This document shows, piece by piece, positions 18,543 to 51,885 of a stretch of DNA of 64,000 nt. The stretch's first letter is position 1. Every line of letters starts with the position of its first letter. Under the pieces are notes generated by a model, which was not told the origin of the DNA, did no database searches, and saw only the letters and a list, made by a program, of their open reading frames with translations. The DNA lies in IMG/VR virus record IMGVR_UViG_3300012232_000011, positions 17,196 to 81,195 of that record; one strand, 5' to 3'. The position numbers and the translations under genes were made by a program. This DNA comes from a virus.

Positions 18543-18606
18543 CGAATAGGCTCTAGCACGCCGGAGATGCAGGGGCGGCGACCGATAAGGTCGCCGCCCC
18601 TTTTTC
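18543..18606 (+). ncRNA. conserved leader + intrinsic terminator (attenuator/small RNA candidate), copy 1
   Basis: 39 nt identical to 37062-37100; 12-bp GC stem 18572-18600 followed by a U5 tract. Confidence 0.8.
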
Positions 18607-21874: not shown

Positions 21875-21910
21875 GAAAGGGGCGGATCACTCGATCCGCC
21901 CCTTTCGTTT
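21875..21910. terminator. bidirectional intrinsic terminator
   Basis: Perfect 14-bp stem GAAAGGGGCGGATC-ACTC-GATCCGCCCCTTTC between the convergent capsid gene and island 2. Confidence 0.85.
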
Positions 21911-21927: not shown

Positions 21928-22299
21928 TTAGCGTGTACGCAGCGCGGTCTCCCAATCCTCCCGGGTGTAGATGCGGAGCGTTCGACCGTCCGGGTTGGCG
22001 GCGGTCGCCTGCGTGTCATTCACGCACACGTACCAACCGCGATCATCGCGGGACAGTCCGTGGGCGTCGTATGCATCGTTGCGCCCGTCCGTGTCGATCA
22101 TATTCGCGAGGGCGGTCGCGTCGTCGCGGGTGATCTCGTTGTCTTCCTCAATCTGGAATCGCACCTTGTACCGCTTGCCCTCGTACACGGCGGCGAAGTC
22201 GCAATCGACCTCCGCCGTCTCGATCAGGGATTCGTCGGCTGCGTCGATCACGTTCAGCAGCCACTCGGTGATTTCCTTTTTCGTCGTCGCTTCTATCAT
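21928..22299 (-). CDS. hypothetical protein (island 2)
   Basis: 123-aa ORF with GGAGG RBS. Confidence 0.7.
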   Translation of the reverse strand: MIEATTKKEITEWLLNVIDAADESLIETAEVDCDFAAVYEGKRYKVRFQIEEDNEITRDDATALANMIDTDGRNDAYDAHGLSRDDRGWYVCVNDTQATAANPDGRTLRIYTREDWETALRTR

Positions 22300-22346
22300 G
22301 GGTTACGCCTCCGGTGTTCATCGTTCGCCGCAATAACGTTCACGGT

Positions 22347-22517
22347 TCAGGCTTCGTCGTTCGTCGTCACCGCCTTTCCGTTCACGCGGAACACCTGACA
22401 GGGGCACCGCCGCTCGTCCAGCGGGTCGGCGTTCAGGTAGGCGTTGCACACGTAGCGGAGATCGTGATCGGCGCATCGGTGGCCGCAATCGCAGAGCGTG
22501 TCCGGTGTTGGTCGCAT
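22347..22517 (-). CDS. small Cys/His-rich protein (island 2), not in the ORF track
   Basis: MRPTPDTLCDCGHRCADHDLRYVC...RCPCQVF..., 56 aa, RBS GGAGGCGTAACC. Confidence 0.65.
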   Translation of the reverse strand: MRPTPDTLCDCGHRCADHDLRYVCNAYLNADPLDERRCPCQVFRVNGKAVTTNDEA

Positions 22518-22520
22518 CGG

Positions 22521-23036
22521 TTACGCCTCCGTCCGGTGTAGGTGGATCCAGTCCGCCCCGAGGCGCACGACCCGCGCACCCTCGGGCACGTCGTTCACGA
22601 TACGACCGACCGCGCCCTCGCGTGTCATGTAGTGACGCCGCAACGTCTTCAAGTCCTGCATGCCGTCAAAGTCCGCGCCCTGAAAGCGAGCGGCGAGCGG
22701 CGCGACTGCGACCGTCGGAGGATCGCCGATCCAGCGAACGTCGATGCTCGCGCCCATGCTGTACGTGCGCGAGCGGACGCTGAACCGAACGTCGGGAAAC
22801 TCGCGCCGCAATTCATCGCGAAGCAGAGCGGCGACGACGGAACACTTCAGGTGCTGCGCCGTCTGAGGCTCGCCATATCCGCAGGCGTTCTCTTGTTTGC
22901 GGTCGAACGCCCATGCGTTGTCGCCGACGCTGTTCAGGTGGTTCCAGTTGTGCGACGACGCGCTCCGCCCGATCACCCGTCCGCATTTCGAGCATAGGGT
23001 GACGCTGCCCGGGATGATATCGATCAAGTCGTTCAT
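22521..23036 (-). CDS. LPD29-like (large polyvalent protein-associated domain) protein with an N-terminal CxxC
   Basis: LRREFPDVRFSVRSRTYSMGASIDVRW..GADFDGMQD resembles the LPD29 pattern. Confidence 0.75.
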   Translation of the reverse strand: MNDLIDIIPGSVTLCSKCGRVIGRSASSHNWNHLNSVGDNAWAFDRKQENACGYGEPQTAQHLKCSVVAALLRDELRREFPDVRFSVRSRTYSMGASIDVRWIGDPPTVAVAPLAARFQGADFDGMQDLKTLRRHYMTREGAVGRIVNDVPEGARVVRLGADWIHLHRTEA

Positions 23037-23039
23037 TTG

Positions 23040-23341
23040 TTAGATCGCTCCAAACTGAGGAAGCCGTCCCTCGTTAGCCGCATCGCGCTCGGTGCGACCG
23101 CTGAAGCGGATCGCCGCGACGGGTTCGCCGTTGCCATCTTCGATCACGAAGCCGTCGGCTGCTCGCTTCGCGTAGGAAACCTCGCGACCGCCGAACGCCC
23201 TCATGATCGCTGCCGCTGTCTCGCCCCGGACGAAATCGCGGAGCCGTGCCGGGAGTTGCGCTCGATGAACCCGACAGCCTTGCGGGTGCATCCGTCCGCG
23301 CTCTCTACTATCACTTCGTACCGGGTTGGTTCGGTCGTCAT
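23040..23341 (-). pseudogene. 100-aa hypothetical gene split by a 1-nt deletion (mutation, assembly error or recoding)
   Basis: MTTEPTRY...ERNSRHG continues as LRDFVRGETA... in another frame; adding one G near 23243 gives 303 nt = 101 codons. Confidence 0.6.
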
Positions 23342-23350
23342 GGTTTGTGT

Positions 23351-23398
23351 CTCCCTTCCTTCAGTTACAAATGTAACATAGCGGGCGGAGGAAGTCAA
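23351..23398 (-). promoter_or_regulatory. conserved promoter-operator-RBS unit, copy B
   Basis: TTGACT-17-TACATT, palindrome at 23364-23377, then ACTGAAGGAAGGGAG. Confidence 0.85.
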
Positions 23399-23436: not shown

Positions 23437-23615
23437 GCCGACTGAGTCGGCGGACAAGGGAGCGCGGGGCGTTTCTCCTCCGGCGGCGGCGGGACGCGGA
23501 TGATCACCCGCCGCCGCCACTCCCGATAGACTGGCAAACAGGCGGGGCCTTGCGGACTTCAACCCGCCAGCGGTTTTCGGATGGACGCCGGGCGGGGAGC
23601 CCGGCGTTTGTCTTT
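23437..23615 (+). ncRNA. structured intergenic RNA candidate ending in a terminator-like hairpin
   Basis: Hairpins at 23437-23451, 23482-23518 (12-bp stem), 23541-23568 and 23584-23608, followed by TTTGTCTTT. Confidence 0.45.
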
Positions 23616-23711
23616 GGAATTGGCATAACGCCGCGCCACAACCGCGATCCGTGTGATATCGTTTGACCGCGTCGCCGCGGGAGCCTGGACCGCGTCGGGC
23701 TTCTATTCACC

Positions 23712-24707
23712 ATGCTCAAAGGTCGAATCCTGATCACGGGCGGCGCCGGGTTCCTCGGTCGCGCCATCCTCCGTCGCATCGAACGCGAGGGCTGGCCAGC
23801 CGAAGTTACGATCTACTCCCGCGACGAACACAAGCAGGATGAGATCCGGAAGCGTTGGCCCGGCGTGCGTCGCATCCTAGGAGACGTGCAAAACTTCGAC
23901 CGCCTGCACGGTGTTCTGTCCGAGCATCGATACGATCTGGTCATTCACACCGCCGCGCTCAAGTTCATCCCCGAGGGCGAACTGAACGTGAACGAGTGCG
24001 TCGACGTGAACATCATCGGATCCCGCGCCGTCGCGCTCGCCGCCATCGCCAGCGAAGTGCCGACGGTTGTCGGGCTTTCGACGGACAAAGCGGCGGCGCC
24101 GCTGAACACTTACGGAATGACGAAGGCGATCATGGAGCGGGTGTTCGCGGAGCTGAACCGACAGAGCGCGACGCGCCTTGTCTGTGTCCGGTATGGCAAC
24201 GTCTGCTCTTCCTCCGGCTCGGTTGTGCCGCTGTTCCGGGAACAGTACGCACGGACCGGCAAGGTCTCGATCACGTCGCCGGAAATGACGCGGTTCTGGC
24301 TCACGAATGACGATGCGATCGATATGATCACGACAGCGGCGGACAACGCGCAACGCTACCCGGGCGGCGTGTTCGTGCCGCGCTGCGGTGCGATGCATAT
24401 CGGCGCGGTCGCGGTCGCCGCTGTCCCCGAGTTGGACGCGACCGGCATCGAAGTTGTCGGCTTGCGTCCTGGCGAAAAGCTGCACGAGGTGCTGTTGCTT
24501 GCGGCGGAAACTCCGCGAGCGACGCCCGTGTTCCCGAAGCGTTCACAGTACGCGGTCTCGGTGATCGCGCCGCCGAACCTTCCCGAACACTTCGGCGCAA
24601 TTCAGGGCGAGGCGTCTGAATACCGGAGCGACAACCCGGCATCGTGGATCAGCGTCGAACAGTTCCGCGAGTGGATCGCGGATGCGGAGGAGGTGCTGCA
24701 TGGCTGA
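23712..24707 (+). CDS. UDP-GlcNAc 4,6-dehydratase/epimerase (CapD/FlaA1/PseB/WbjB family)
   Basis: ITGGAGFLG, YSRDEHKQ, HTAALK, LSTDKA, YGMTK, VRYGNV..S.GSVVPLF, MTRFW and RPGEKLHE motifs. Confidence 0.93.
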   Translation: MLKGRILITGGAGFLGRAILRRIEREGWPAEVTIYSRDEHKQDEIRKRWPGVRRILGDVQNFDRLHGVLSEHRYDLVIHTAALKFIPEGELNVNECVDVNIIGSRAVALAAIASEVPTVVGLSTDKAAAPLNTYGMTKAIMERVFAELNRQSATRLVCVRYGNVCSSSGSVVPLFREQYARTGKVSITSPEMTRFWLTNDDAIDMITTAADNAQRYPGGVFVPRCGAMHIGAVAVAAVPELDATGIEVVGLRPGEKLHEVLLLAAETPRATPVFPKRSQYAVSVIAPPNLPEHFGAIQGEASEYRSDNPASWISVEQFREWIADAEEVLHG

Positions 24708-24954
24708 GAAGGGCGACGGGCGAAAGGTACAGGCGGACGCGGACGACGCTGCCGCGACCGCGGAGGATCAGGCGAAGGCGGCGCTGGAAGAGGCGAACTT
24801 CCAGAAGTCACTCGTCAACGCCGAACGCCTGGGCGCAATCGACGGGAAGCGCATCGGCGTGCTGATCAACACGATCAACGCCCAATCGAAGACCGCGCTC
24901 ACGCCGGATGAACTAACGCAGATCGTCTGTTCCTATCTGAGTGCAACGAAATGA
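24700..24954 (+). CDS. hypothetical helical protein
   Basis: MAEKGDG..., 84 aa, overlaps both neighbours. Confidence 0.65.
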   Translation: MAEKGDGRKVQADADDAAATAEDQAKAALEEANFQKSLVNAERLGAIDGKRIGVLINTINAQSKTALTPDELTQIVCSYLSATK

Positions 24955-25784
24955 ACATCACCGTAGTCGGCGCGGAAGGGATGCTCGGGCGAGCGGTCGC
25001 GGACGAAGCGACCAACGCCGGGCACGCCGTATCGCGCATCGGCCACGACTCCTTCGACATTGCCGACGGTCACCCGTGGTCGCGCGGGACCGTCGATGTT
25101 GCGATCAACTGTGCGGGGATGCGCCCGGGCACGGGCGAGTGGGGATCGGAGATGATCCGGACGAACGCGCTCGGCCCGCACCGACTCGCCGAAGACCTCG
25201 GGCTTGTCGGGATCAAACTGATCCACGTGTCAACGGATTGCGTTTTCAACGGCTCGCGCTCCGATTGGTCGGGCGGGTACGAAGTCGAGCGAGCCGCCGA
25301 CGCCATCGACCTGTACGGTCGCTCGAAATCCGCCGGCGAACTGATAGGCGTCGAAGGTTGCCGCACGATCCGGACTTCGTTCATTGGCCCGAACCACGGG
25401 CTGCTCGGTTGGCTGCTCACTGAGGCGCGGAAGGGAACACCCGAAGTTCGCGGATATTGGGCGTCGCTGTGGGGCGGTTCAACCGTGTGGGAAGTCGCTC
25501 GCGGCATCGTGAAGGAAGCGGAGTGGTTCGCGAAGGATCATGCCGCCCGGCACGTGATCAACGGGATCGTACATCTGGCGACGGAGGAACCGCAGCGCAA
25601 GTACGACGTCGTCGCCGCGCTCGTCGATGCGCTCGATCTCCCGCTCCGCGTGCGAGCTGTTCCGGAGCCGAAGATCAACCGGGCCCTCGAGCCGACTGAA
25701 GGGCGGGTGCTCCGCCCCGTGATTGGGATCCTGCCGGAACTGGTCGAGCGAGTGCGAGCGTATGATGGCAAATCCCGCCCATAG
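24951..25784 (+). CDS. RmlD-like NDP-4-keto-6-deoxysugar reductase
   Basis: VVGAEGMLG, INCAG, LIHVSTDCVF, YGRSKSAGE and IRTSFIG motifs. Confidence 0.9.
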   Translation: MNITVVGAEGMLGRAVADEATNAGHAVSRIGHDSFDIADGHPWSRGTVDVAINCAGMRPGTGEWGSEMIRTNALGPHRLAEDLGLVGIKLIHVSTDCVFNGSRSDWSGGYEVERAADAIDLYGRSKSAGELIGVEGCRTIRTSFIGPNHGLLGWLLTEARKGTPEVRGYWASLWGGSTVWEVARGIVKEAEWFAKDHAARHVINGIVHLATEEPQRKYDVVAALVDALDLPLRVRAVPEPKINRALEPTEGRVLRPVIGILPELVERVRAYDGKSRP

Positions 25785-26118
25785 CCACCCCGTGTTTCAG
25801 ATGATGCCCTCGGGCGCAATCGCCCGGGCCTGGTGGCCGGAGTTGTGCGCCGCGTGCGCCGCTAGCGAGACCGCGCCGACGGACACGTACCCGCGACCGC
25901 TCACTCACTACCACGACGGACCCTACGGCTTGACCTTCGCGCCCGTCGCCGGATGCAACGGCTGCGAGCATGAAAAGCGCAACGAGGACGGAACCGTGGG
26001 ACCGTTTGACGCTTACGAAGGCGGCAGCGCGGACTGCCCGATCCGGGTCTTCCCGATGGTTACCTGGTTCGACTATTTGGAGTGGCGCACCGCCCGCGCC
26101 GGAAAGGTTGCACGATGA
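25762..26118 (+). CDS. hypothetical Cys-containing protein
   Basis: MMANPAH...; CxxC pairs. Confidence 0.55.
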   Translation: MMANPAHSHPVFQMMPSGAIARAWWPELCAACAASETAPTDTYPRPLTHYHDGPYGLTFAPVAGCNGCEHEKRNEDGTVGPFDAYEGGSADCPIRVFPMVTWFDYLEWRTARAGKVAR

Positions 26119-26837
26119 AGGATCCGATTATGAACGAGGCGAGCGCGAGCGCGATGATCTGTCCGGAGTGCCCGGTTTCAATGTCCGTCGTGATCGCGCC
26201 GACGAATGACCGCACCTATCGGCATGGCGATCACCAGATCACGTTCACAGCTCGCGACCTGGCCGAGCAACATGATCCGATCACCTATATGCGGGACACG
26301 TTCAACGAGTGGCACGCGAAGGTGCTGCCGACGCTTCCGAAGGATGTCGGAATCATCGCCGACTTCGCCGAGTTGCGCTCCGCTCCGGATCCGAACGCCA
26401 TCGACGTGATCGAAGTGGCGGAGGCGGGAGCGAAGCGAGCGAACAAACTGCTCGCCGCCGGCTGGAAGCTGTTGAACGTCGGCGTCACGACAACCGACCG
26501 GACGCGACCGGACGGGCAACCGACGATGGCGCGGCGCACGACCTACGCGCTCGGTCGACCGCCCGGCGTCCTGCCTGAAGTGTTCGAGGAAGAGCGCACT
26601 TCGCCGCCGTCCATCGCGAACCAACACGCGGCCCGGCCGCGCATGATGCTGGTGGGCGTCGAGGGCGATATCTTCCATATCCACCAGTGGCGCGAGGATT
26701 GCGACGTGCGCGGGTGCATCGTGGCAACGGAGGAAATGATCAACGACGAACACGCGAGGCTCGACGCGCTCCGCTCGACGACCGCGCCGGAGCGCGTCGA
26801 GCCGGAGCGTCCGAAGGATGGAAGGATGCACGAATGA
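26115..26837 (+). CDS. hypothetical protein
   Basis: ATGA-coupled; CPEC near the N-terminus. Confidence 0.6.
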   Translation: MKDPIMNEASASAMICPECPVSMSVVIAPTNDRTYRHGDHQITFTARDLAEQHDPITYMRDTFNEWHAKVLPTLPKDVGIIADFAELRSAPDPNAIDVIEVAEAGAKRANKLLAAGWKLLNVGVTTTDRTRPDGQPTMARRTTYALGRPPGVLPEVFEEERTSPPSIANQHAARPRMMLVGVEGDIFHIHQWREDCDVRGCIVATEEMINDEHARLDALRSTTAPERVEPERPKDGRMHE

Positions 26838-27628
26838 AGATCACCGTCGCGATCCCCGTCGGTCCGTTCCCGGCGAACAAGCAATGGTTGCCCGAGTGCC
26901 TCGCGAGCGTCGCCGCACAGACGCGACAGGCGGACGAGGTTCTGCTGATCGACGATATGGCGGGCCTCGGAATGACCGACCTCAAGCCGCTCCGGATCGA
27001 CGGCGACCGCTGCACGGAAGGACCCGCCTTCATGGGGCACTCGGGATCGTTGTGCGTCACGCACCTTGAGCGCGTCGCCGCCGACAGGGACGAGGAATCC
27101 GCCGGAACGTGGTGGCGAACCTTCGCCCGGATCTGGCGGTCGCCGTGGCGGTTGGGCGTCGGCGCGGCCTTTAACGCCGGCGTGGGCCTCGCCTTCGGCG
27201 ATTGTGTGTTCATGCTCGGGAGCGACGACACGCTCGAACCTCAATGCCTGGCAATGTGCGAGGAGGAGTTTCACGCGATGCGCGGTGCCGACGCCTACTA
27301 CTACGTCGATCTGCGCTACAGCGACGGACGCCCGGATCAGTCCGTCCCGTGCAACGCGGCGATGGTTACGAAGGGCTTCTGGCGAAAGTCCGGCGGGTTC
27401 GCTCCGGAGTCCGGGTCGGGTGCGCCGGACGCCGCTCTGATCTCCGCGATGATGGTCAACGATCCGGACTCGCTCGTCCGCGTCCAATCGCCGTCGCCGC
27501 TGTACGTGTACCGGGTACACGAGGGCACCGACACGGCGGGGCGCGAGCGATGGCAGGGGATCATCCTCGAAACCCGGGACATACTCACCGAGACCTGGAC
27601 CGCGCCGAAGTGGGGGAGGGTGGTATGA
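26834..27628 (+). CDS. GT-A fold (GT2-like) glycosyltransferase
   Basis: ITVAIPVG..LPECLASVAAQT..EVLLIDD; LGSDD DxD-like motif. Confidence 0.8.
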   Translation: MKITVAIPVGPFPANKQWLPECLASVAAQTRQADEVLLIDDMAGLGMTDLKPLRIDGDRCTEGPAFMGHSGSLCVTHLERVAADRDEESAGTWWRTFARIWRSPWRLGVGAAFNAGVGLAFGDCVFMLGSDDTLEPQCLAMCEEEFHAMRGADAYYYVDLRYSDGRPDQSVPCNAAMVTKGFWRKSGGFAPESGSGAPDAALISAMMVNDPDSLVRVQSPSPLYVYRVHEGTDTAGRERWQGIILETRDILTETWTAPKWGRVV

Positions 27629-27825
27629 ACGTGAAGATGGCGGAGGCGTTGATCGAAGCGATAGACGCGCTGCGTTGGGATATCCGCGGCGTCGCCGCTT
27701 TGAGCGATCCCGGAACGGTCTTCAGCGACAACCCTCGCATCGCGGCGCGGGAGGCGTTCGCCAATTCGGACGCGAGCATGAAGCGTGCGCGACATCTGTT
27801 GAAATTGTTCGAGGCGAAGCAATGA
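27625..27825 (+). CDS. hypothetical protein
   Basis: MNVKMAEAL..., ATGA-coupled on both sides. Confidence 0.55.
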   Translation: MNVKMAEALIEAIDALRWDIRGVAALSDPGTVFSDNPRIAAREAFANSDASMKRARHLLKLFEAKQ

Positions 27826-28184
27826 TCATCGTTGGCGCGATCCTCGGGTTGATAGGAGCGGTCGGAATCGCCGCCCTGTTCGGGTACATCATCGGATGGC
27901 AGCTAGGGCGAGTCGAAGAGCGGGAGCGGATCGTCGCCTATGTGCAGTTGCGCTACCGGGTGCGCTTCCAGAAGTCGATGGGTCGCCCGGACAATATGGA
28001 GCAGGGATATCAGGACGCGCTCGGAGCGGTCGCCGATCAGATCGAAAGCGGACACGCCTCGCTGCATCGCGCTCGCTGGTACGAGTCCGCGCCGCCCGGC
28101 GGTGCGAAGGTGCTTCATCACGTCGACGACTCCTACGGCTCCGGCGTCGGGACGCCTCCGCCTAGCGAGCGACCGCCCCTATGA
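27822..28184 (+). CDS. membrane-anchored hypothetical protein
   Basis: N-terminal hydrophobic segment MIIVGAILGLIGAVGIAALFGYIIGW. Confidence 0.6.
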   Translation: MIIVGAILGLIGAVGIAALFGYIIGWQLGRVEERERIVAYVQLRYRVRFQKSMGRPDNMEQGYQDALGAVADQIESGHASLHRARWYESAPPGGAKVLHHVDDSYGSGVGTPPPSERPPL

Positions 28185-28783
28185 GTTGTCCAGCGCACGA
28201 CCTTGCGGACTCGCGCCGCCTGTTGACCCGCGAGGATGTCGATTGCCTGCAACGCCTCGCGCTCCGGCTCCCCGGGCGCGGCGTTGTGTTGGAGTTGGGC
28301 GCGGGTTCCGGGACGAGCGCACTCGCGATCCTCTGCGTGCGCCCCGACCTCATGATCGTGTCCGTCGATATCAGCGAAGAGGCGATCCATTCGACGGCGG
28401 AACTTTTGAGCAACGCCGCCGATCAACGCTTCATCATGCGCCCGGACACGTGCTGGCGCGGCGTGATCGCCGATTCGTGCGACGTCGTCGCCATCGCCGA
28501 TCCGATGGCCGATATCAAGTCGGGTACGCCGGACGCGCTGCTGATCGATTCCTCGCACGAACTCGAGGCAACCCGGCGCGAGCTGGACACGTGGCTCCCG
28601 GCGCTCCGCTCGCACGGGCACGTGTGGGCGCATGATTACGACGCGGCGGCGGCGGTAGCGCAGGGCATCGACGCGTATCCCGGCGTCGGCACCGCGATCG
28701 ATGAAGCGGTCGCTCTCGGGCGGCTCGTGACGGGCGGCGTCGAGGGCCTCGGCTGGTGGGGATGGACGCCGAAGCGACGATGA
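28181..28783 (+). CDS. class I SAM-dependent methyltransferase (Methyltransf_24-like)
   Basis: VLELGAGSG, VSVD, LLIDSSH and HDY motifs. Confidence 0.85.
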   Translation: MSCPAHDLADSRRLLTREDVDCLQRLALRLPGRGVVLELGAGSGTSALAILCVRPDLMIVSVDISEEAIHSTAELLSNAADQRFIMRPDTCWRGVIADSCDVVAIADPMADIKSGTPDALLIDSSHELEATRRELDTWLPALRSHGHVWAHDYDAAAAVAQGIDAYPGVGTAIDEAVALGRLVTGGVEGLGWWGWTPKRR

Positions 28784-28989
28784 ACAAACGCGAACCGCGC
28801 CCCGTGCTGAAGATCATCCTGACCGTGTTCGAGACGGGGGACTATGCGGAGGAACAAATCCGGCGCGACGTGCGACGCCTCGTTGGAGCGCGTGGCGCGA
28901 TCACCCGGTTGCTCGGGCACACGTACCTGCTCGACGTGGCGCCGCCGGGCGGTCGGTTGCAAGGCGACACGCAGACGGAGGCGCGATGA
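28780..28989 (+). CDS. hypothetical protein
   Basis: MNKREPRP..., ATGA-coupled. Confidence 0.5.
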   Translation: MNKREPRPVLKIILTVFETGDYAEEQIRRDVRRLVGARGAITRLLGHTYLLDVAPPGGRLQGDTQTEAR

Positions 28990-29705
28990 ACAACGAGCGA
29001 CCGCCGATCACTATCGTGGTCACGACCTATTTCCCGGACGGAGCGGAGGCACGGATCGCGACCGCGCTCCGCACGTTGGCGAGTTGGCGCGAGCATCTCC
29101 GGTACGAGGGCGAGATCAAGATCGAGATTTGCGACGATGATTCGCCCGAGGATATGTCGCTGCTCTTCCGTCGCGGTCTCGAAAGCGATCCGCCTGGCTA
29201 CTGGCGCGAATGGCGATGCTCGGGATCGACGCACCTTCGCGCCGGCGTCGGCTCGTCGCTGAACTCCGGCATCGCAACGTGCAAGGCGTCCGGCTCGCTC
29301 ATGCTGTACGCCGTCGACGACTGGCGGATCGATGCGCCCTTCGACCTCACGCCCTGGGCGGACGTGCTGATCGAAAACAGCACCGTCGGCTGCGTGCGCT
29401 TTTTCCCGCATCCGCACCTGCGCGGCGGTCGCATCCTGAACTTCCGAACAGGTTGGGCGGTTGAGTTCGAGCGCGTCGGATTCTATTGGGCGCAACGCCC
29501 CGCCCTGTACCACATGCGGTTTTTTGACTACTACGGCGGCTTTCCTGAGAACGTATCCGCGCTCGACGTGGACGAGATTTACAACGCGAACATATGCCAC
29601 GCGCACCCAATGTCCCCGAAGGTGATCCTCGCGCTCCCGCAAGCCTGGACGCCCGACGAATCCGATACGGTTCCCCTCGGACATCTCGTCCCGGAGCGAC
29701 GATGA
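28986..29705 (+). CDS. GT-A fold glycosyltransferase
   Basis: ITIVVTTY, ICDDDS, SLNSG and YAVDDW motifs; paralog of 30952..31656. Confidence 0.75.
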   Translation: MNNERPPITIVVTTYFPDGAEARIATALRTLASWREHLRYEGEIKIEICDDDSPEDMSLLFRRGLESDPPGYWREWRCSGSTHLRAGVGSSLNSGIATCKASGSLMLYAVDDWRIDAPFDLTPWADVLIENSTVGCVRFFPHPHLRGGRILNFRTGWAVEFERVGFYWAQRPALYHMRFFDYYGGFPENVSALDVDEIYNANICHAHPMSPKVILALPQAWTPDESDTVPLGHLVPERR

Positions 29706-30616
29706 AGCGCGGATACTCTGAGAAGATGGTCTACGCCGTGCGCGAATCCGAGAGCGAAAAACTCGGCCCGGTCGCGGCGACCTATGTGTCGCAAACATCG
29801 TGCCCCTCGTCCTGTCCCTTCCTGAACGGCGGCGGATGCTATGCGGAGAACGGACCCGTCGCCCTGGTAGCGACGAAACGCCTCAACGCTGCGACGCCGG
29901 AGGGTACTACGGCGGGGCAACTGGCCCGGATCGAGGCAAGAGCCATCGACGGGCTGCGGGGCGACCTGGACCTTCGGCTGCACGTTGTAGGGGACAGCAC
30001 GACGGAATGGGGGACGGTTCAGCTCGCGACCGCGTCGGAGGCGTACATGCGCCGGGGCGGTCGCCGCGTTTGGACATACACACACTCGTGGCGCACGGTT
30101 CCCCGCGTCGCATGGGGCGACGTGTCGGTACTGGCGAGTTGTGAGACGCCGGAGGAAGTCCGCGAGGCGGAGGCACTCGGGTACGCGACCGCCATCGTTG
30201 TCGACGCCCACGGAACCGACCGCGTACAGCTCATGGACGGACACAAGACCCTGCCCTGTCCGCAACAGACGCGGGGCGTCACGTGCGCCGAGTGCCGGAT
30301 CTGTACGGACGACCGCCGTCTACACGCCGCAGGGATTACGGTCGCGTTCGCGGCGCACGGCGGCACGACCTCCCGGAAGCGGGCCCTCGAGACCGTCGCT
30401 CGCCGCCGGGATGCGGAGGGAACCCGCGAGCGGCGCACGAACAAGGGCTGCTCGATCATCTGGTGCGACGAACAGCGCGAACGATTCTGCGGGACCTGCG
30501 CCCGTGGTTACTGTCTCGCGCACGTGTGCGATCAACACGAGATCCAGAACAAGGCGTACCGCGCAACGAACGGCGCGGCGGGAGTGACGCAGTACCGTCA
30601 CGAGATCACCCGATGA
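29702..30616 (+). CDS. Cys-rich putative Fe-S protein (phage Gp88-like/DUF7227-like)
   Basis: SCPSSCPF..GCYAE, LRLHVVGD, WTYTH, VLASCE and PCP..TCAECRIC motifs. Confidence 0.65.
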   Translation: MKRGYSEKMVYAVRESESEKLGPVAATYVSQTSCPSSCPFLNGGGCYAENGPVALVATKRLNAATPEGTTAGQLARIEARAIDGLRGDLDLRLHVVGDSTTEWGTVQLATASEAYMRRGGRRVWTYTHSWRTVPRVAWGDVSVLASCETPEEVREAEALGYATAIVVDAHGTDRVQLMDGHKTLPCPQQTRGVTCAECRICTDDRRLHAAGITVAFAAHGGTTSRKRALETVARRRDAEGTRERRTNKGCSIIWCDEQRERFCGTCARGYCLAHVCDQHEIQNKAYRATNGAAGVTQYRHEITR

Positions 30617-30921
30617 CGATTCCGCGCCTGGTGCGCGAGGAAGTGTTCGAGCGGGACCAATGGACGTGCCAATACTGTCTGAACAAACCGGCGAAGGTGA
30701 TCGATCACCTGGTACCGGGTGCGCTCCGCCGCTATCACCGACTGAACCACGACCGCGCTCCGGATTTCCTCACGGCATCCTGCGTCGATTGCAACCTCCG
30801 CAAACTCACACACCGACTCGTCCCGGCGAGCCGGGCGCATATGATCCCCCAACTCCCCGGCGCGAAGCCGTGGCGCGTATGGGACGGGACGCTCGCACAG
30901 TTTCGGCTGCTTGTCGCTTAG
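30613..30921 (+). CDS. HNH endonuclease
   Basis: REEVFERDQWTCQYC..IDHLVP..SCVDCNLRK. Confidence 0.85.
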   Translation: MTIPRLVREEVFERDQWTCQYCLNKPAKVIDHLVPGALRRYHRLNHDRAPDFLTASCVDCNLRKLTHRLVPASRAHMIPQLPGAKPWRVWDGTLAQFRLLVA

Positions 30922-30924
30922 TCG

Positions 30925-30933
30925 TGTTAGAAT
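30925..30933 (+). promoter_or_regulatory. extended -10 promoter candidate
   Basis: TG-T-TAGAAT in the gap after the HNH gene. Confidence 0.45.
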
Positions 30934-30951
30934 CTGGACGCGGAGGATAGC

Positions 30952-31656
30952 CTGGAACCGCTGGCGATCATGCTGTTGACGTGGGGAGGGATCCCCGAGC
31001 GCACCCTATACGCGGTGCGGACTCTCGATCATGTTCTCGCGAATCTCAAGCACGACGGCGATCTCCATCTGGTGATCGCCGACGATGGATCCCCGCCGGC
31101 GCACCTTCAGCGGTTGCTCGACGTGTCGGATCAGTATCGCGACAAACTGGCGAAGGTTCACCTGAGCAACTCGCACGGCGAAGGCTACGGGCGCAACTTC
31201 AACAATGCGACGGGCGTCGCGCACGAACACGCGGAATACATCCTGCCGCTAGAGGATGATTGGGAATTGAGCCGCGGACTCGATACCGCGCCCCTGATCG
31301 GTGCGCTTCAGGACGAGCGGATCGATTGCATCCGGCTCGGCTATCTCGGCTTCACCGCCGGGTTCCACGGCGACACGATCCACGCCGCCGATCAGACGTA
31401 TCTGCTCCTCGATCCCGAGTCGCCTGATCCGCACGTGTTCAGCGGACACCCGCGCCTGGAAACGCGCACCTGGGAACGGAAGGTTGGGCTGTGGCCCCTC
31501 GAACTGAACCCGGGCGCGACCGAATGGGAAGTGGCGCACCGCAAAGAAGCGCGACGCGGCGTCGTATGGCCGCTCGACCTGATACCCGCGAAGCCGGGCG
31601 CGGGATCTCTGTTTTCACACATTGGCACTGTGCAAGCTCGGAAGGATCAGCGATGA
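30952..31656 (+). CDS. GT-A fold glycosyltransferase (CTG start at 30952 or ATG at 30970)
   Basis: LVIADDGS, GRNFN and LEDDWEL motifs; GGAGG sits 5 nt before the CTG. Confidence 0.8.
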   Translation: MEPLAIMLLTWGGIPERTLYAVRTLDHVLANLKHDGDLHLVIADDGSPPAHLQRLLDVSDQYRDKLAKVHLSNSHGEGYGRNFNNATGVAHEHAEYILPLEDDWELSRGLDTAPLIGALQDERIDCIRLGYLGFTAGFHGDTIHAADQTYLLLDPESPDPHVFSGHPRLETRTWERKVGLWPLELNPGATEWEVAHRKEARRGVVWPLDLIPAKPGAGSLFSHIGTVQARKDQR

Positions 31657-31862
31657 AGGCCACGGAGCGAGCATGGGCAGCGGGATTCATCGACGGCGAA
31701 GGCTGCGTGAGAATCTCTCGCCGCCGCGCCAAAACGCGAGGATACGGCAACGTCGTCCATATGGCGGAAGTATCGGTGGCTCAGGTCGATCCGTCGCCCC
31801 TGATCAAACTGCAAGTACTCTACGGCGGACGGCTGCTACGGTCGAGAAAGGCGAGCGCGTGA
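31653..31862 (+). pseudogene. truncated LAGLIDADG homing endonuclease
   Basis: AWAAGFIDGEGCVRI..VSVAQ..L..LYGG, but only 69 aa, about half of a single-motif enzyme. Confidence 0.7.
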
Positions 31863-34800
31863 AAATTCATATGTTCCCGAAGTTTGGCGACCCGGACGAC
31901 GGCGACGGAGGGGTGCGCCGGGTTGTCGAAGGGCAACAGGAATCCCTGCTCGCGCTCGGGTACGAGTTCGTCGCGATGCCCGACGACGCCGACGTGATCG
32001 CGTCGCATATCGTGATCCCCGAGCCTTACGTCCGCCGCTTCCCCGACGCGCCGATGGTCGCCCACTGTCATGGGCTGTACTGGCACGAGTATTCGACCGA
32101 GCAGGGGAGCATGTGGCCCGCGTGGGCGTTGAAGGCGAACGAGGACGTCATGGAGGCGATCCGGATCGCCGATATCGTCACGGCACCGAGCGAATGGGTC
32201 GCGCAGTCCATCCGACGGGCGACCGCTCGCGACGTGCGCGTCGTCCCGCACGGCGTCAACGCGCACGAATGGACACACCGCACGGACCACGGCGGCTACG
32301 TGCTGTGGAACAAGAACCGCGCCGATCCCGTGTGCGACCCGGCGCCCGTCGCCGAAGTCGCCGCGTTGCTTCCGGACGTCTACTTCCGCTCGACGTTCGG
32401 GCAGGGCGCGGCGAACGTGCTGGTCACCGGGAAGCAACCATTCACCGAGGCGCGTGAGTCCGTCGAACGCGCCGCCGTGTACCTCGCGACAACTAGGGAG
32501 ACCTTCGGCGTCGGAACCCTCGAAGCCTTCGCCGCCGGCGTCCCCGTCGTGGGATGGTGGTGGGGAACCAATGCCGATCTGATCGATCACGGCGTCGACG
32601 GTTGGTTGTGTGCGCCCGGCGATTACGAGGGACTTGCGGAAGGAATCCGATGGGCCATCGCGAACCGCGAACAGCTCGCGCCAGCGTGCCGGGCGAAGGC
32701 GGAACAGTACCCGTGGAGCCGCGCTGCGTCGATGTACGCCGCGATCTACGAGGAAGCCTTCGCGATGCGCCACGCGGATCGCCCGAAGGTGTCGCTCGTC
32801 ATGCCGGCCTTCAACATGAAGGATTACATCGGCGACGCAATCCGTTCGGTGTTCGCGCAGACGCTCACCGATTGGGAGCTGGTGATCGTCGACGATGGAA
32901 GCACGGATGGAACTCGAGGCGTCGCCGTGCAAATCGCGGACGGCGACCCTCGGGTTCGGATCATGGCGAAAGAGAACGGCGGCGTCTCGCTCGCTCGCAA
33001 CTTCGGGATCGAAGCGTCGATGGGTCGATACGTGATCCAACTGGACGCCGACGATCAACTTCCGCCCGGTGCGCTTCAGGCGTTGTCGAGCGAGCTGGAC
33101 GCGAACCGAACGATCCACGGGGCGTATGGCAATGTGCTGTTCGTCAACGAGGACGGGCGCACGCCGACGGAATACCGGGTACAGGGCGAGACGCCAGGAC
33201 ACTCGGGATGGCCTCCGGAGTTTCGCTTTGATTGGCAACTCCGACCGCCGAGCGACGAAACGGGCGACCGTCCGCCCAACCTCGTGCCCTACGCCTGCAT
33301 GGTGCGCCGCGAGGCACTCGAAGCCGTCGGCATGTACCGCACGCGGCTCCAGACGGCGGAGGATCCGGATCTCTGGTGCAGGCTCGCGTCCTACGGCTTC
33401 CGGCTCCGGCGCGTCACGAACGCCGACTGCCTGATCTACCGCAACCGCGAGGGCAGCCTGTCCCGGACAACGCCGCCCGTCGATTGGTCGCTCTGGTATC
33501 CGTGGGCGCGGAACCCCGCCCTCGCGCCGGCGGGAGCCGACACCGAGCAGCAGCTTCCGGTGCTTTCCCTGGACCCGCCGCTGATCGCCGTCGTGATCCC
33601 CGTCGGCCCGGGCCACGCTCGATACCTGATGGACGCGATCGACTCCGTCGAAGCGCAAACGCTCCGCCAGTTCGAGGTGATCGTCGTCGCCGATCTTGCG
33701 GAGGAGGAATGGTTGCCGCCGCTCCCTTCATGGGTTCGCCTGTACCGGACGGAGAAGCGCGGCTCCGGCCCGGCGCACGCCCGGAACCTCGGGATCGCGC
33801 ACGCCCGGGCGCGGTTGTACCTACCGCTCGACGCGGACGATATGCTTCAGTCGGACGCGCTCGCCGCGCTGTATGCCGCGCACGTCGAAAGCGACGGCGC
33901 GATCATCTATTGCGACTGGTGGGAAGACCCGCACGCGCCCGGGGAATATCAGATATGGGAAACGAAGGAATGGCACCCGCCCGACCTGATCGGCAACGGC
34001 TCGATCCATTCCGTCACCGCGCTCACGCCCGTGTCCGTCTGGCAGCGGCTCGGCGGGTACGACGAGACGCTTTCAGGTTGGGAGGATTGGGCGTTTCAGA
34101 TCGCCTGCGCCGCTGAGTGCATCTGCTCGCAGCGGCTCGCGCTCCCGCTGTTCCTGTATCGCAAGCACACGGGATCCCGGCGGGAAGAGAACACCGCCAA
34201 CTTCGATCAGTCGGCGGCGGATATCCGGGCCAAGTTCGGCCAATACTGGACAGGAGGAAAGATCATGGGAGGCTGCGCGGGTTGTCAGAAGAGGGCGGCG
34301 CAATCGCCGCCGCAACAGGCGCAACAGATCGCGGAGGGTATGACGCTGTTGCGCTTCGTCGGATCGCGCTCTGGCTCCGTGCCCTGGAAAGGGAAGGCGA
34401 CGGGCGCGATCTACTTTTTCGGATCGGGCGAGGAGAAGTACGTCGCCAACGCGGATCTCGAAGCGACGCCGGCGTTTCAGACGCCGAACTTCGTGCGTGT
34501 GCAGGCTGGCGGGATGCCGAACGTAGACACGAACGCGCCGACGATCTCGACACCGCAACCGCAAGCGGCGGCGGTCGCCGCGATGCCCTCCGCCGCGTCG
34601 CGGGTCTTCGAGCGCGAGTTGCCGATGCTGGACACGAACGATCCGGCGTTGCGCTATGAGCCGCCGCCGTCGACCATGCCGCCGCCAATGCCGCCGCCGG
34701 ATCTCCCGCCAGCGGAAACGACAGCGGCGGATCCGCCAGCGATGATGCCGCCGAACACCGCGACACCGAACCCGAACAGCGGGCCTCCGCCGGGCTTCGC

Positions 34801-34981
34801 CGGATTCGATGCCGCGAAGACCGAGGAACCGCAGGGCGGCGACGCCGCCGCGTTCGACCAACTCGGGAGCGCGGGAGCGGGTGCCATCGAACAGGCGGTG
34901 GAGGGCGAGCTGCAGGACGAGGTTGTCGAGCGACCCGGGAAGGCTCCGTCGGCGCGGAAGACCGCGAAGCGGAGCCATTAG
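31859..34981 (+). CDS. tri-domain glycosyltransferase (GT-B/GT4 + two GT-A/GT2) with a Pro-rich C-terminal domain
   Basis: GTG start. ETFGVGTLEAFAAGVP (GT4); VSLVMPAFN..IVDDGS..LDADD (GT2); IAVVIPVG..LPLDADD..GWEDW (second GT2). Confidence 0.9.
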   Translation: MKIHMFPKFGDPDDGDGGVRRVVEGQQESLLALGYEFVAMPDDADVIASHIVIPEPYVRRFPDAPMVAHCHGLYWHEYSTEQGSMWPAWALKANEDVMEAIRIADIVTAPSEWVAQSIRRATARDVRVVPHGVNAHEWTHRTDHGGYVLWNKNRADPVCDPAPVAEVAALLPDVYFRSTFGQGAANVLVTGKQPFTEARESVERAAVYLATTRETFGVGTLEAFAAGVPVVGWWWGTNADLIDHGVDGWLCAPGDYEGLAEGIRWAIANREQLAPACRAKAEQYPWSRAASMYAAIYEEAFAMRHADRPKVSLVMPAFNMKDYIGDAIRSVFAQTLTDWELVIVDDGSTDGTRGVAVQIADGDPRVRIMAKENGGVSLARNFGIEASMGRYVIQLDADDQLPPGALQALSSELDANRTIHGAYGNVLFVNEDGRTPTEYRVQGETPGHSGWPPEFRFDWQLRPPSDETGDRPPNLVPYACMVRREALEAVGMYRTRLQTAEDPDLWCRLASYGFRLRRVTNADCLIYRNREGSLSRTTPPVDWSLWYPWARNPALAPAGADTEQQLPVLSLDPPLIAVVIPVGPGHARYLMDAIDSVEAQTLRQFEVIVVADLAEEEWLPPLPSWVRLYRTEKRGSGPAHARNLGIAHARARLYLPLDADDMLQSDALAALYAAHVESDGAIIYCDWWEDPHAPGEYQIWETKEWHPPDLIGNGSIHSVTALTPVSVWQRLGGYDETLSGWEDWAFQIACAAECICSQRLALPLFLYRKHTGSRREENTANFDQSAADIRAKFGQYWTGGKIMGGCAGCQKRAAQSPPQQAQQIAEGMTLLRFVGSRSGSVPWKGKATGAIYFFGSGEEKYVANADLEATPAFQTPNFVRVQAGGMPNVDTNAPTISTPQPQAAAVAAMPSAASRVFERELPMLDTNDPALRYEPPPSTMPPPMPPPDLPPAETTAADPPAMMPPNTATPNPNSGPPPGFAGFDAAKTEEPQGGDAAAFDQLGSAGAGAIEQAVEGELQDEVVERPGKAPSARKTAKRSH

Positions 34982-34983
34982 CG

Positions 34984-35292
34984 ATGGACGAAGCCTTCCG
35001 CGCCCTCGTGTGCGGCCTTGCCGCCTGGCGGCTCGGCTCGTTGCTCGCCTTCGAGAATGGCCCGTGGAACCTACTGGAATACGTCCGCCGCTATATGTTC
35101 GGGTTCCCGGACTCGGGCGAAATTACGGGCGTCCGTGCGCTGCTGATAACATGCCTCTGGTGTTCGACCGTTTGGTTCGCTCCGTTGTTCTGGATCGCGT
35201 GGGAGTGGCATCCCTGGATCCCCGGAGTGTTCGCAGCGATGGCGATCGCCGTCGCGTGTGAGACCTTCATCACCGGACGTGGCCGACACTAG
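34984..35292 (+). CDS. DUF1360-like membrane protein
   Basis: LAAWRL..LL..E.GP....VR...LLITCLWCSTVW pattern. Confidence 0.75.
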   Translation: MDEAFRALVCGLAAWRLGSLLAFENGPWNLLEYVRRYMFGFPDSGEITGVRALLITCLWCSTVWFAPLFWIAWEWHPWIPGVFAAMAIAVACETFITGRGRH

Positions 35293-35304
35293 GAGGGATC
35301 CGCG

Positions 35305-36570
35305 ATGGCTCGCGCCGGCATCCGCACGAAACTCCCGCTCGACACGTGGGCGAAACTCATGGGCGTTCACCCGTTGCACTTCAATCAGATCACGCTCGCC
35401 GGCGTCACCGACTCGCCGATGTGCGACAAGGCGTGGCTTCAACACGAGTGGCAAGGAATCGACCGCACCGGACGCGAGGCGGTTGCTTACTCGATCCAGA
35501 ACGCCGAGGCGATGCTTGAGGACTATCTCGGGTACTCACTGATCCCGACGTGGGAGATCGACGAGTGGCAAAAGATGCCGCGAGCGCGGCGCCCTGAATG
35601 GTTCAACCTCTCGGGCACGAACGTCCGCGGACAGCGGACGGCGGTACAGGCGGAGCGCGGCTATTTCATCATGCCCGGCGTTGAAGCGAAGGACCTGATC
35701 GAAGCGACCGCGCCGATCACTTACGACAATGACACCCTCGAGTTCGAGGACACCGGATACAGCGAGACCGCGACCGTCGGCGTCACCGTCGCCGAGGGCA
35801 CGCCGCCGTGCGAGCTGGCGGTCTACTACCCGGGACACGACGGCGACGACGCGTGGGAGATCCGCCCCGTGTCCGTCGAGATCGTCGGAACCGCCGCGAC
35901 GATCACCTTCCCGCGCTACATGGCGGTCGAAGAGGAATTGCTAGAAGCGATACACCCGGGCGACGTTGAAGGAACCGACGACGACAACTTCCTCGAAGCC
36001 GTCGACGTGTATCGTCACTTCAACGATCCGCGCACGCAGGGGATCCTCATGTGGGAGGGCGGCGTGTGCGGGTGCCTGTCCGGTACGTGTTCGGCGTGCA
36101 ACTTCTCCGTGCAGACCGCGTGTCTGTTCTCACGCGACGAGCCGCGCAACTCGTTCGTCGTCTGGAATCCCGCGGAATGGAACGAGGACGATCTCGCGTT
36201 CCGCTCGTCCGGGATGGATATCGGACGGCAACCCGACGTGATCCGCCTGAACTATCTCGCCGGCTGGCGCGACCGCCGCGCCGCGTGTCCCGATCAAATG
36301 GACAACCTCATGGCGCGAGCTGTTGCCAACCTCGCGGCGGGTCTCCTGGACCGACCGCCGTGCGGGTGCGCCGCCCTGGAAGAGCGGATCAATCGCTGGC
36401 GGCGCGACTTCGCTTTCGACAACGGAGCAGAGGAACTCTCGAAGTTTCAGATCGCGCCCCGCGATCTAGAGAACCCGTTCGGCACGACCGCCGGGGCGAT
36501 CTACGCATGGCGATGGGCCAACGGGCGGACGGTCGCTCCGCCAATCGTGAAAGCGGCGATGCATGCCTAG
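35305..36570 (+). CDS. putative head-tail connector/neck protein
   Basis: 421 aa, upstream of the tail genes; IRLNYLAG motif typical of adaptor proteins. Confidence 0.5.
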   Translation: MARAGIRTKLPLDTWAKLMGVHPLHFNQITLAGVTDSPMCDKAWLQHEWQGIDRTGREAVAYSIQNAEAMLEDYLGYSLIPTWEIDEWQKMPRARRPEWFNLSGTNVRGQRTAVQAERGYFIMPGVEAKDLIEATAPITYDNDTLEFEDTGYSETATVGVTVAEGTPPCELAVYYPGHDGDDAWEIRPVSVEIVGTAATITFPRYMAVEEELLEAIHPGDVEGTDDDNFLEAVDVYRHFNDPRTQGILMWEGGVCGCLSGTCSACNFSVQTACLFSRDEPRNSFVVWNPAEWNEDDLAFRSSGMDIGRQPDVIRLNYLAGWRDRRAACPDQMDNLMARAVANLAAGLLDRPPCGCAALEERINRWRRDFAFDNGAEELSKFQIAPRDLENPFGTTAGAIYAWRWANGRTVAPPIVKAAMHA

Positions 36571-37039
36571 TGCGCGACGCGGCGCCGCCGCGCCCCGGAC
36601 GAACCGGAGGCGACCCGGGCGACCGGAGGAGCCAACTCCCGCAATCGAGCGTGCCTCCGTCCCCGTCCGACAGGCGCAACCCGACCGCCGCCAGCGGCGC
36701 CCGACCGGGCTTCGGGACAGGGACATCCGCGCCGCCGGGATGCGGAAGGCGGAGCGGACGGACGGGCACGGGCGGAAGCAATACGTCCTGCTCCCCGCTT
36801 CTGAACCTGATACACCCGCCGCCATCGAACGCGGAGCTTTGTTGGGACCGCCGCCCCTCGTGTCGCTCGGGCTTCCCCTGAGCCTCGAAGTCGCCCTCAA
36901 CAACGAATTGTTCAACCGGGGCATCATTACGGAGGCGGACGCCCGTGCCCGGTTCCGGGAAATCGTCGGTGCCTGGCAAGCCGTCCTAGCTACGGGCGCG
37001 GCGAAGATCCACGCCGTGTACGTTGACGCCGGAACCTGA
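36563..37039 (+). CDS. hypothetical protein
   Basis: 158 aa; Arg-rich N-terminus and helical C-terminus. Confidence 0.55.
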   Translation: MPSARRGAAAPRTNRRRPGRPEEPTPAIERASVPVRQAQPDRRQRRPTGLRDRDIRAAGMRKAERTDGHGRKQYVLLPASEPDTPAAIERGALLGPPPLVSLGLPLSLEVALNNELFNRGIITEADARARFREIVGAWQAVLATGAAKIHAVYVDAGT

Positions 37040-37061: not shown

Positions 37062-37124
37062 CGAATAGGCTCTAGCACGCCGGAGATGCAGGGGCGGCGA
37101 TCCATCTGATCGCCGCCCCTTTTC
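37062..37124 (+). ncRNA. conserved leader + intrinsic terminator, copy 2
   Basis: First 39 nt identical to copy 1; stem GGGGCGGCGATC/GATCGCCGCCCC followed by a U4 tract. Confidence 0.8.
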
Positions 37125-51876: not shown

Positions 51877-51885
51877 GCGGACAAC

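Follow-up and report, generated by a model that had tools for sequence, protein, structure and literature searches.

The window analysed here is a 64,000-nucleotide (nt) stretch, bases 17196-81195 of the complete 81,526-bp phage record IMGVR_UViG_3300012232_000011, and its segment 23712-35292 encodes a cassette of sugar-nucleotide enzymes and glycosyltransferases (GTs) that is flanked by the genes for the major capsid protein and the head-tail adaptor. We favour, with somewhat more confidence than doubt, the reading that this cassette is a late-expressed cytoplasmic glycan-assembly module of the morphogenesis block that glycosylates a virion protein. An initial annotation had described the segment as a self-contained virion glycosylation system, and all eight components that it named are present on the plus strand according to domain and profile matches. 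They are listed here together with a candidate gene nested in the largest of them.

23712-24707, plus strand: uridine diphosphate (UDP)-N-acetylglucosamine (UDP-GlcNAc) 4,6-dehydratase of the PseB/FlaA1 type (PF02719, 2.9e-72)
24951-25784, plus strand: RmlD-like NAD(P)H 4-reductase (PF04321, RmlD_sub_bind, 1.5e-17)
26834-27628, plus strand: stand-alone GT-A (GT2) enzyme 'a' (PF00535, 5.1e-12)
28181-28783, plus strand: class-I S-adenosylmethionine (SAM)-dependent methyltransferase, Methyltransf_24 (PF13578, 3.2e-10)
28986-29705, plus strand: stand-alone GT-A enzyme 'b' (DDDS and VDDW motifs; family profile match)
30970-31656, plus strand: stand-alone GT-A (GT2) enzyme 'c' (PF00535, 5.8e-6)
31859-34981, plus strand: GT4-GT2-GT2 tri-domain fusion (two PF00535 stretches, 1.6e-44; PF00534, 2.3e-14; PF13439, 1.3e-8)
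34265-34981, plus strand: candidate nested in-frame gene, 238 residues, starting Met-Gly-Gly-Cys (conserved Met with a Shine-Dalgarno sequence)
34984-35292, plus strand: DUF1360-like small membrane protein, about 100 residues, three hydrophobic helices (orthologue matches, hydropathy)

The position of the cassette is constant across a large lineage. The comparative set comprises 35 loci recovered through the GT fusion (GC content 41-70%) and two informative loci recovered through a capsid profile; single-protein scans of IMG/VR with the fusion or with the 564-residue scaffold-like protein returned nothing, and an alignment query was required. In all 35 fusion-recovered loci, with GC contents of 41-70% and capsid identities down to 33%, the genes follow one order: gp10-like protein, scaffold-like protein, capsid, sugar genes, fusion, DUF1360 protein, adaptor and a 158-residue protein, followed by a tail protein of 500 residues, a chaperone and the tape measure. 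The capsid profile retrieved 768 representatives at 50% identity, of which 501 match at less than 1e-30, and this independent sampling gave the same arrangement in both informative loci, with a minimal set of GT2, methyltransferase and fusion. The fusion thus lies between the capsid and adaptor genes in all of the approximately 37 loci, usually accompanied by a GT-A enzyme, the methyltransferase and the DUF1360 protein.

As judged from sequence searches, the tri-domain fusion is a phage-restricted hallmark gene of this lineage. Among the candidates scored it has 928 significant homologues, the top 120 of which align over the full length at 43-52% identity, many of them on contigs of 60-97 kb. 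A full-length copy was not found in GenBank phages (50,697 records), which also contain no DNA near-identical or similar to the window. A search of 185,579 prokaryotic species, each represented by a single genome, found the fusion at full or near-full length on four metagenome-assembled genome (MAG) contigs only; two of these, each about 83 kb, show phage synteny, a third (9.7 kb) shows capsid-to-adaptor synteny and the fourth (2.9 kb) has a partial copy. The nearly identical loci L048 (83,701 bp) and L049 (83,332 bp) contain the whole structural module and carry the MAG labels Proteobacteria and Gemmatimonadetes; they are probably mis-binned phage DNA and are therefore an unreliable host clue.

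Around this fixed core the sugar genes turn over. The dehydratase was found in 22 related loci and GT-A 'c' is near-core (about 21 loci), the reductase (8 loci) and GT-A 'a' (13 loci) are accessory, GT-A 'b' likewise varies in presence, and the methyltransferase recurs in many relatives, minimal cassettes included. The variable slot of relatives contains tailoring genes for nucleoside diphosphate (NDP)-sugar C-methyltransferases, a DegT aminotransferase, a PIG-L deacetylase, kinases and a kinase-methyltransferase fusion. Individual cases are found at L011:7246-8709, L020:5378-6475, L024:8955-9995, L010:8275-9426, L018:2430-3692 and L022:7864-9090, where the genes encode an APH-kinase and methyltransferase fusion, lone kinases, C-methyltransferases and a DegT aminotransferase. 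Kinase and methyltransferase activities are combined in the O-antigen chain terminator WbdD. Such a pairing, of a constant polymerising core and hypervariable genes for tailoring, is characteristic of loci for surface glycans, and turnover of this kind is expected for a surface-exposed glycan under diversifying selection.

The predicted chemistry begins with the dehydratase, which matches FlaA1/PseB of H. pylori (PDB 2gn4) at 2.1e-51 and in alignments to 2gn4 and 3vvb retains STDK...YGMTK, i.e. the Asp-Lys and Tyr-x-x-x-Lys catalytic residues. The Tyr of YxxxK is kept, whereas enzymes of the CapE/FnlA type have Met at this position (MGISK in CapE). Scores of 231.8 bits (9.7e-69) against the NCBIfam PseB model TIGR03589 and of 180.6 bits against the FnlA model lie under the respective cut-offs of 407.75 (equivalog) and 730, and on these matches the protein is a member of the Polysacc_synt_2 superfamily and not an equivalog of PseB or FnlA. 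The reductase has the Rossmann GxxGxxG, the YxxxK pair and the family-model match of an RmlD-type enzyme, its YGRSK aligning with YGASK of PDB 3sc6 (6.6e-7). It scores 58.7 against a TIGR01214 equivalog cut-off of 224, below the level at which substrate and product would be defined.

An RmlD-like reductase acting after the dehydratase points to a 6-deoxy-N-acetylhexosamine (6-deoxy-HexNAc) rather than a nonulosonic acid, and the sugar product made from UDP-GlcNAc is likely of this kind. The deoxy-amino-sugar of the initial annotation has to be revised in the same direction, as the cassette lacks an aminotransferase. Its proposal that the glycan is O-methylated amounts to a guess, since the matches of the methyltransferase to PDB entries span the generic SAM-binding region only. 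The description as self-contained, approaching the autonomy of giant viruses, was likewise overstated: just two nucleotide-sugar-modifying enzymes are present, so that UDP-GlcNAc, other NDP-sugars and SAM must be supplied by the host.

All three stand-alone transferases combine a match to a GT-A/GT2 model with a DxD-type motif. As a single sequence GT-A 'b' has no Pfam match; its family profile matches the GT-A domain of chondroitin synthase (K4CP) at 4.2e-11, and the profile of GT-A 'c' matches K4CP at 2.5e-7. The two are paralogues (hhalign probability 100%, 5.9e-48; BLASTP 6e-8). K4CP is also the closest match to the GT2 domains of the fusion (1.9e-21), which resemble both polymerases and undecaprenyl phosphate (UndP)-sugar transferases.

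Beyond its GT domains the fusion continues into a CxxC motif, a small beta domain and a Pro-rich tail that is the only Ser/Thr/Pro-rich stretch of the module. This tail is not conserved, and many homologues stop directly after the beta domain. The domain model of the CxxC region has a core with a pLDDT (predicted local distance difference test) above 90, and the fold recurs both as independent small proteins and at the C-terminal ends of further GTs; its comparison with the PDB gave no significant match, only weak GINS-like rows. In front of the invariant CxxC motif stands a conserved Met, with a Shine-Dalgarno sequence of at least 5 nt ahead of it in 18 of 24 loci; among 543 other internal Met codons the proportion is 3.7%. 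In the window the Shine-Dalgarno sequence (34241-34270, ATG at 34265) is formed by rare GGA GGA Gly codons, and a matching site is present in L004-L049. The conserved Met and its Shine-Dalgarno sequence suggest that a small CxxC protein is encoded by a nested gene, the predicted product consisting of the CxxC motif, a linker, a beta-rich core of about 55 residues and the Pro-rich tail.

The small membrane protein encoded next matches PF07098 below threshold (12.8 bits against a cut-off of 21, E 0.12), and all 18 of its 18 orthologues match the family at E values of 1 or less, the best at 2.8e-8. Alignment and motif scans identify W-R, E-x-G-P, R and CxxC as invariant. Its gene lies directly 3' of the fusion in about 22 loci and is missing in several clades that retain the fusion. 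A predicted complex of this protein with the fusion CxxC domain and Zn scored 0.05, below the mark, and is evidence neither way.

The transcriptional layout of the cassette is framed by the following elements.

20372-21853, plus strand: HK97-fold major capsid protein, the upstream anchor (Atlas structure with a template modelling (TM) score of 0.74 to 'major capsid protein' and 0.53/0.77 to SU10_MCP)
21875-21906: strong hairpin terminator with a 14-bp stem, 9 G-C pairs and a T-rich tail, ending the capsid transcription unit
21928-23398, minus strand: block of about 1.5 kb with open reading frames (ORFs) of 123, 56 and 171 residues, the last with an LPD29 domain
35305-37039, plus strand: gp6-like head-tail adaptor of 421 residues (35305-36570; structure model) and its conserved 158-residue partner, the downstream anchor

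From 23712 to 37039 all genes are on the plus strand; they are joined mostly by 4-nt ATGA overlaps, with 48 nt as the widest gap, which packs the cassette together with the adaptor and its partner. This overlapping array of 13.3 kb starts at the dehydratase and ends at a leader/terminator element at 37063. The terminator behind the capsid gene faces the convergent minus-strand block, which has a sigma-70-like promoter at 23398-23370 and is absent in relatives; together they make the cassette of this phage a unit separate from the capsid gene. The placement of the whole cassette in the late operon by the initial annotation is therefore too simple as regards the capsid gene; it is with the neck genes that the cassette shares its plus-strand array.

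Several features of this layout may be recorded. A 37-nt leader element occurs in two exact copies, at 18544-18580 and 37063-37099, where none would be expected by chance, and each copy is followed by a GC hairpin and T-tract, directly ahead of the gene that opens the capsid module or the tail module. It was not found upstream of the dehydratase, in a region that does not align with the leader copies. Another hairpin with a T-tract lies at approximately 23586-23620, about 100 nt 5' of the dehydratase, whose ATG (region 23700-23714) has no recognisable Shine-Dalgarno sequence; translation may start there in a leaderless or non-Shine-Dalgarno manner.

From these components a route can be proposed. 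The PseB-type dehydratase would convert host UDP-GlcNAc to a 4-keto-6-deoxy intermediate, which the RmlD-like reductase would turn into UDP-6-deoxy-HexNAc. The stand-alone GT-A enzymes would attach priming or side-chain sugars, and the fusion would make a conserved backbone, which may be repetitive because the GT2 domains of the fusion most resemble chondroitin and heparosan polymerases. The methyltransferase would modify or cap the chain, a role that a kinase with a methyltransferase may fill in some relatives. The acceptor would be a component of the virion, the candidates being the C-terminal tail of the capsid protein with its GG-x-T/S motif, a domain inserted in the adaptor and the small CxxC protein.

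The gene content, the conserved position in the structural module and the searches for competing functions agree with glycosylation of the virion. The complete 81,526-bp genome contains no candidate for a hydroxymethylase of the ThyA family (PF00303), in a search that fired in 10 control genomes, and no match to the integrase/recombinase families PF00589 and PF07508. There is accordingly no pointer to canonical DNA glycosylation, and lysogenic seroconversion is unlikely. With no carrier-initiating enzyme, flippase, exporter, ligase, integrase or hydroxymethylase, the simplest reading is that a component of the particle is glycosylated in the cytoplasm while the particle assembles, as in mycobacteriophages. 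A number of points weigh against it. The capsid, tail tube and Ser/Thr/Pro-rich proteins had been put forward as acceptors, but none emerged from the analysis: Ser/Thr-rich or poly-Thr C-terminal tails of the kind seen elsewhere are absent from both the capsid and the tail proteins, and the GG-x-T/S motif, a lead at best, is present in the capsid protein and absent from the tail protein. In this phage the terminator and the opposite-strand block part the cassette from the capsid gene. A conserved membrane protein as a neighbour is unexpected for a purely cytoplasmic protein glycosylation, the cassette has no homology to the experimentally proven enzymes of the mycobacteriophage Corndog, and the argument from position is correlative, drawn from an uncultured lineage known from its genes alone.

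The membrane protein leads to the rival explanation that a polysaccharide is built at the inner face of the membrane on an acceptor outside the virion, i.e. a lipid, the DUF1360 protein or a precursor of the host envelope. We give this a minor but real chance, and rate no higher the corollary that its product alters the infected cell by blocking superinfection, masking receptors on debris or aiding lysis. The three-helix protein is conserved directly after the fusion in about 22 loci, the fusion GT2 domains resemble polymerases and UndP-sugar transferases, and kinase and methyltransferase genes, the two activities of WbdD, occur in some relatives. However, Pfam scans of the cassette and of the ORFs of the scanned relatives gave no initiating phosphoglycosyltransferase, flippase, ABC exporter or ligase, several clades bearing the fusion lack the DUF1360 protein, no integrase was found that would fit lysogenic seroconversion, and the invariant place between capsid and adaptor would be left unexplained.

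Somewhat less probable still is that the glycan is carried by the small CxxC/Pro-rich protein or by the tail of the fusion itself, as a detachable decoration of the capsid or a soluble factor, the major subunits not being glycosylated directly. The internal Met with its Shine-Dalgarno sequence (18/24 loci against the 3.7% background), the Ser/Thr/Pro content that the fusion tail alone has in the module, and the recurrence of the same small fold on its own and at the C-termini of other GTs speak for such a carrier, whereas a Pro-rich tail that many homologues lack speaks against it. It is similarly improbable, in our estimate, that the fusion, the internal-start CxxC protein and the DUF1360 protein form a hitherto undescribed phage-specific system in which a length-capped, methyl-terminated polysaccharide is built on a carrier that docks to the capsid or neck. 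Hypermodification of the phage DNA, by glucosylation as in T4 or otherwise, appears very improbable. Pyle et al. 2024 reportedly described glycan-modified DNA, and much of this genome's coding effort goes into protecting its DNA, three N6/N4 DNA methylases being encoded. Phage GTs are, moreover, classically DNA-modifying enzymes (PMC12619734). Against this, the complete genome yielded no thymidylate-synthase-family hydroxymethylase, the cassette sits in the morphogenesis block apart from the genes of DNA metabolism, and six GT domains with synthesis of a 6-deoxy-HexNAc go far beyond known DNA-sugar systems. Glycosylation of a virion protein in the cytoplasm is the reading that we retain.

Systems of comparable design provide a measure for this reading. 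In mycobacteriophages, GTs that the phage encodes next to its structural genes glycosylate the C-termini of capsid and tail-tube subunits (Freeman 2023, as reported in PMC12619734, PMC12363180 and PMC11600133). The cassettes concerned, as described in papers citing Freeman et al. 2023, are gp35-38 of Corndog (an O-methyltransferase and three GTs), gp108-110 of Che8 and that of Myrna. The Corndog GTs lie between the portal and the protease/capsid genes, and the GTs and methyltransferase of the present cassette are likewise inside the structural block (capsid to adaptor, in about 37 loci). Both would be cytoplasmic and without export machinery, and a glycan coat on capsid and tail subunits is expected here. 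The mycobacteriophage genes to which the initial annotation appealed are nevertheless analogous rather than homologous: in BLASTP comparisons of Corndog gp35-38 with all cassette proteins the best E values were 0.018 (gp37 with the second GT2 domain) and 0.047 (gp35 with the methyltransferase). The present cassette is also larger, with six GT domains including those of the tri-domain fusion, adds sugar-nucleotide enzymes, the DUF1360 membrane protein and a candidate nested carrier protein, and is core to a large uncultured lineage (GC 41-70%) known from its genes alone and distinct from actinobacteriophages.

A dehydratase/reductase pair acting on UDP-GlcNAc is also encoded by giant viruses. 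In Mimivirus and Megavirus a UDP-GlcNAc 4,6-dehydratase/epimerase and a reductase produce UDP-L-RhaNAc (UDP-N-acetyl-L-rhamnosamine), and GT clusters build the glycans of the fibrils. Several GTs decorate the surface of those particles, and this cassette, likewise rich in GTs, is predicted to do the same, but it belongs to a tailed phage of 81.5 kb with two sugar-nucleotide enzymes and no full de novo pathway, and is far from autonomous. Among bacterial systems, the ABC-transporter-dependent route to O-polysaccharide employs the multi-domain polymerases WbdA and WbbB and the terminator WbdD, while K4CP and heparosan synthase are bifunctional GT2 polymerases. The multi-domain fusion with GT2 domains closest to K4CP, the methyltransferase genes (with or without a kinase) in the locus of relatives and the hypervariable tailoring set all resemble these systems, whereas the setting among head-neck genes, with no lipid-carrier initiator, ABC transporter or ligase in Pfam scans, does not.

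The glycosylation islands of flagellin and pilin share the putatively inverting PseB/FlaA1-type dehydratase with its Tyr catalytic motif, and in them a self-assembling structural protein is O-glycosylated in the cytoplasm, as is predicted here. In contrast to the pseudaminic acid route, the cassette has no PseC aminotransferase, PseH, PseG, PseI, PseF or Maf-type transferase. Gtr seroconversion and T4 glucosylation similarly depend on phage-encoded GT-A or GT-B enzymes; the small membrane protein, however, has a match (sub-threshold in this phage) to DUF1360 only and none to a GtrA-family model, there is no integrase, and the hydroxymethylase of the T4-type route is lacking in this genome.

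About a third of segment 23712-35292 consists of unrelated or unassigned genes, all on the plus strand.

24682-24954, plus strand: 90-residue ORF overlapping both neighbours, unique to this phage
25765-26837, plus strand: two ORFs of 117 (Cys-rich) and 240 residues, unique to this phage
27625-28184, plus strand: ORFs of 66 and 120 residues, the latter with one N-terminal hydrophobic helix, unique to this phage
28756-28989, plus strand: 77-residue ORF
29702-30616, plus strand: DUF7227/GP88-family protein (PF23872, 3.5e-25; Atlas matches)
30613-30921, plus strand: HNH endonuclease gene (HNH, 8.4e-4)
31653-31862, plus strand: LAGLIDADG half-domain of 69 residues (PF00961, 2.1e-4, profile positions 2-55 of 102)

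The 117- and 240-residue ORFs have no match in Pfam, PHROG or NCBIfam and no orthologue in related loci, and orthologues in those loci are equally lacking for DUF7227, HNH, LAGLIDADG and all six unmatched ORFs, which marks them as local insertions. The DUF7227, HNH and LAGLIDADG genes are thus lineage-unique insertions and not parts of the system. Wedged among the GT genes with 4-nt overlaps, they resemble invaders of the homing-endonuclease type; the DUF7227 and HNH block is probably a mobile element outside the glycosylation core, and from its partial match the LAGLIDADG half-domain is a putative homing-endonuclease remnant. DUF7227, like DUF1360, has essentially no literature.

The structural neighbours have features of their own. 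At the extreme C-terminus of the capsid protein (21760-21853) an aromatic residue is followed after two to four residues by G-G-x-T/S, with a P-S pair further on. This motif is kept lineage-wide (L004-L130), even at about 33% overall identity, and is a possible glycan acceptor or inter-capsomer contact. Family profiles of the capsid and the adaptor had no match to PDB sequences. The adaptor model (pLDDT 85.5) has as its best VIA-align match the gene transfer agent (GTA) adaptor 6tba (Z 8.0), with further matches to about a dozen neck proteins, including those of DT57C, 812, Mu, HK97 (gp6), Douge and Bxb1; Foldseek against the PDB returned only noise (TM about 0.13). At 421 residues the adaptor exceeds its structural relatives (about 100-200), and a beta-sandwich (roughly residues 82-320) with conserved Cys pairs is inserted in the gp6-like helical core; on the model this insertion would project from the neck.

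The putative major tail protein of about 500 residues (37155-38660) ends in a BNR/Sortilin-like beta-propeller (PF14870, 8e-5), which is conserved in relatives, unusual for a tail-tube subunit and may bind carbohydrate. In the presumed lysis region, a 606-residue protein (51877-53697) contains long linkers of Pro/Thr repeats; apart from these and the fusion tail, no part of the window is strongly Ser/Thr/Pro-rich. PHROGs and Pfam gave almost no matches for the capsid, scaffold-like, adaptor, tail, tail-tip and lysis proteins, and the lysis genes therefore give no host clue. The source record, of an uncultured sediment phage, has direct terminal repeats of 123 bp and a GC content of about 64%, and near-identical DNA was found in freshwater and other sediment metagenomes. 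Upstream of the window are encoded three N6/N4 DNA methyltransferases and a DUF5131 protein (L002 457-1512, 10019-11506, 16138-17349, 3353-4285); the methyltransferases point to DNA protection by methylation, independent of the GT cassette.

To our knowledge, glycosylation of phage virions has been shown only for a few mycobacteriophages, in which it weakens recognition by antibodies. The glycan-assembly module described here is not homologous to theirs and is much larger; it is hard-wired into the head-neck core of a lineage of at least 768 capsid clusters at 50% identity, and its sugar chemistry turns over between loci as in an O-antigen locus. The GT4-GT2-GT2 fusion, confined to phages, would be of use as a marker gene and might yield new glycosyltransferase specificities. 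Should the glycan be borne by a carrier protein, a widespread lineage of tailed phages would possess an exchangeable O-antigen-like coat, a counterpart of the fibril glycans of giant viruses. If the particles are coated as proposed, glycan coats would be common and diversifying among environmental phages, with effects on adsorption, aggregation, grazing and enzyme resistance in sediments and on the choice of phages for therapy.

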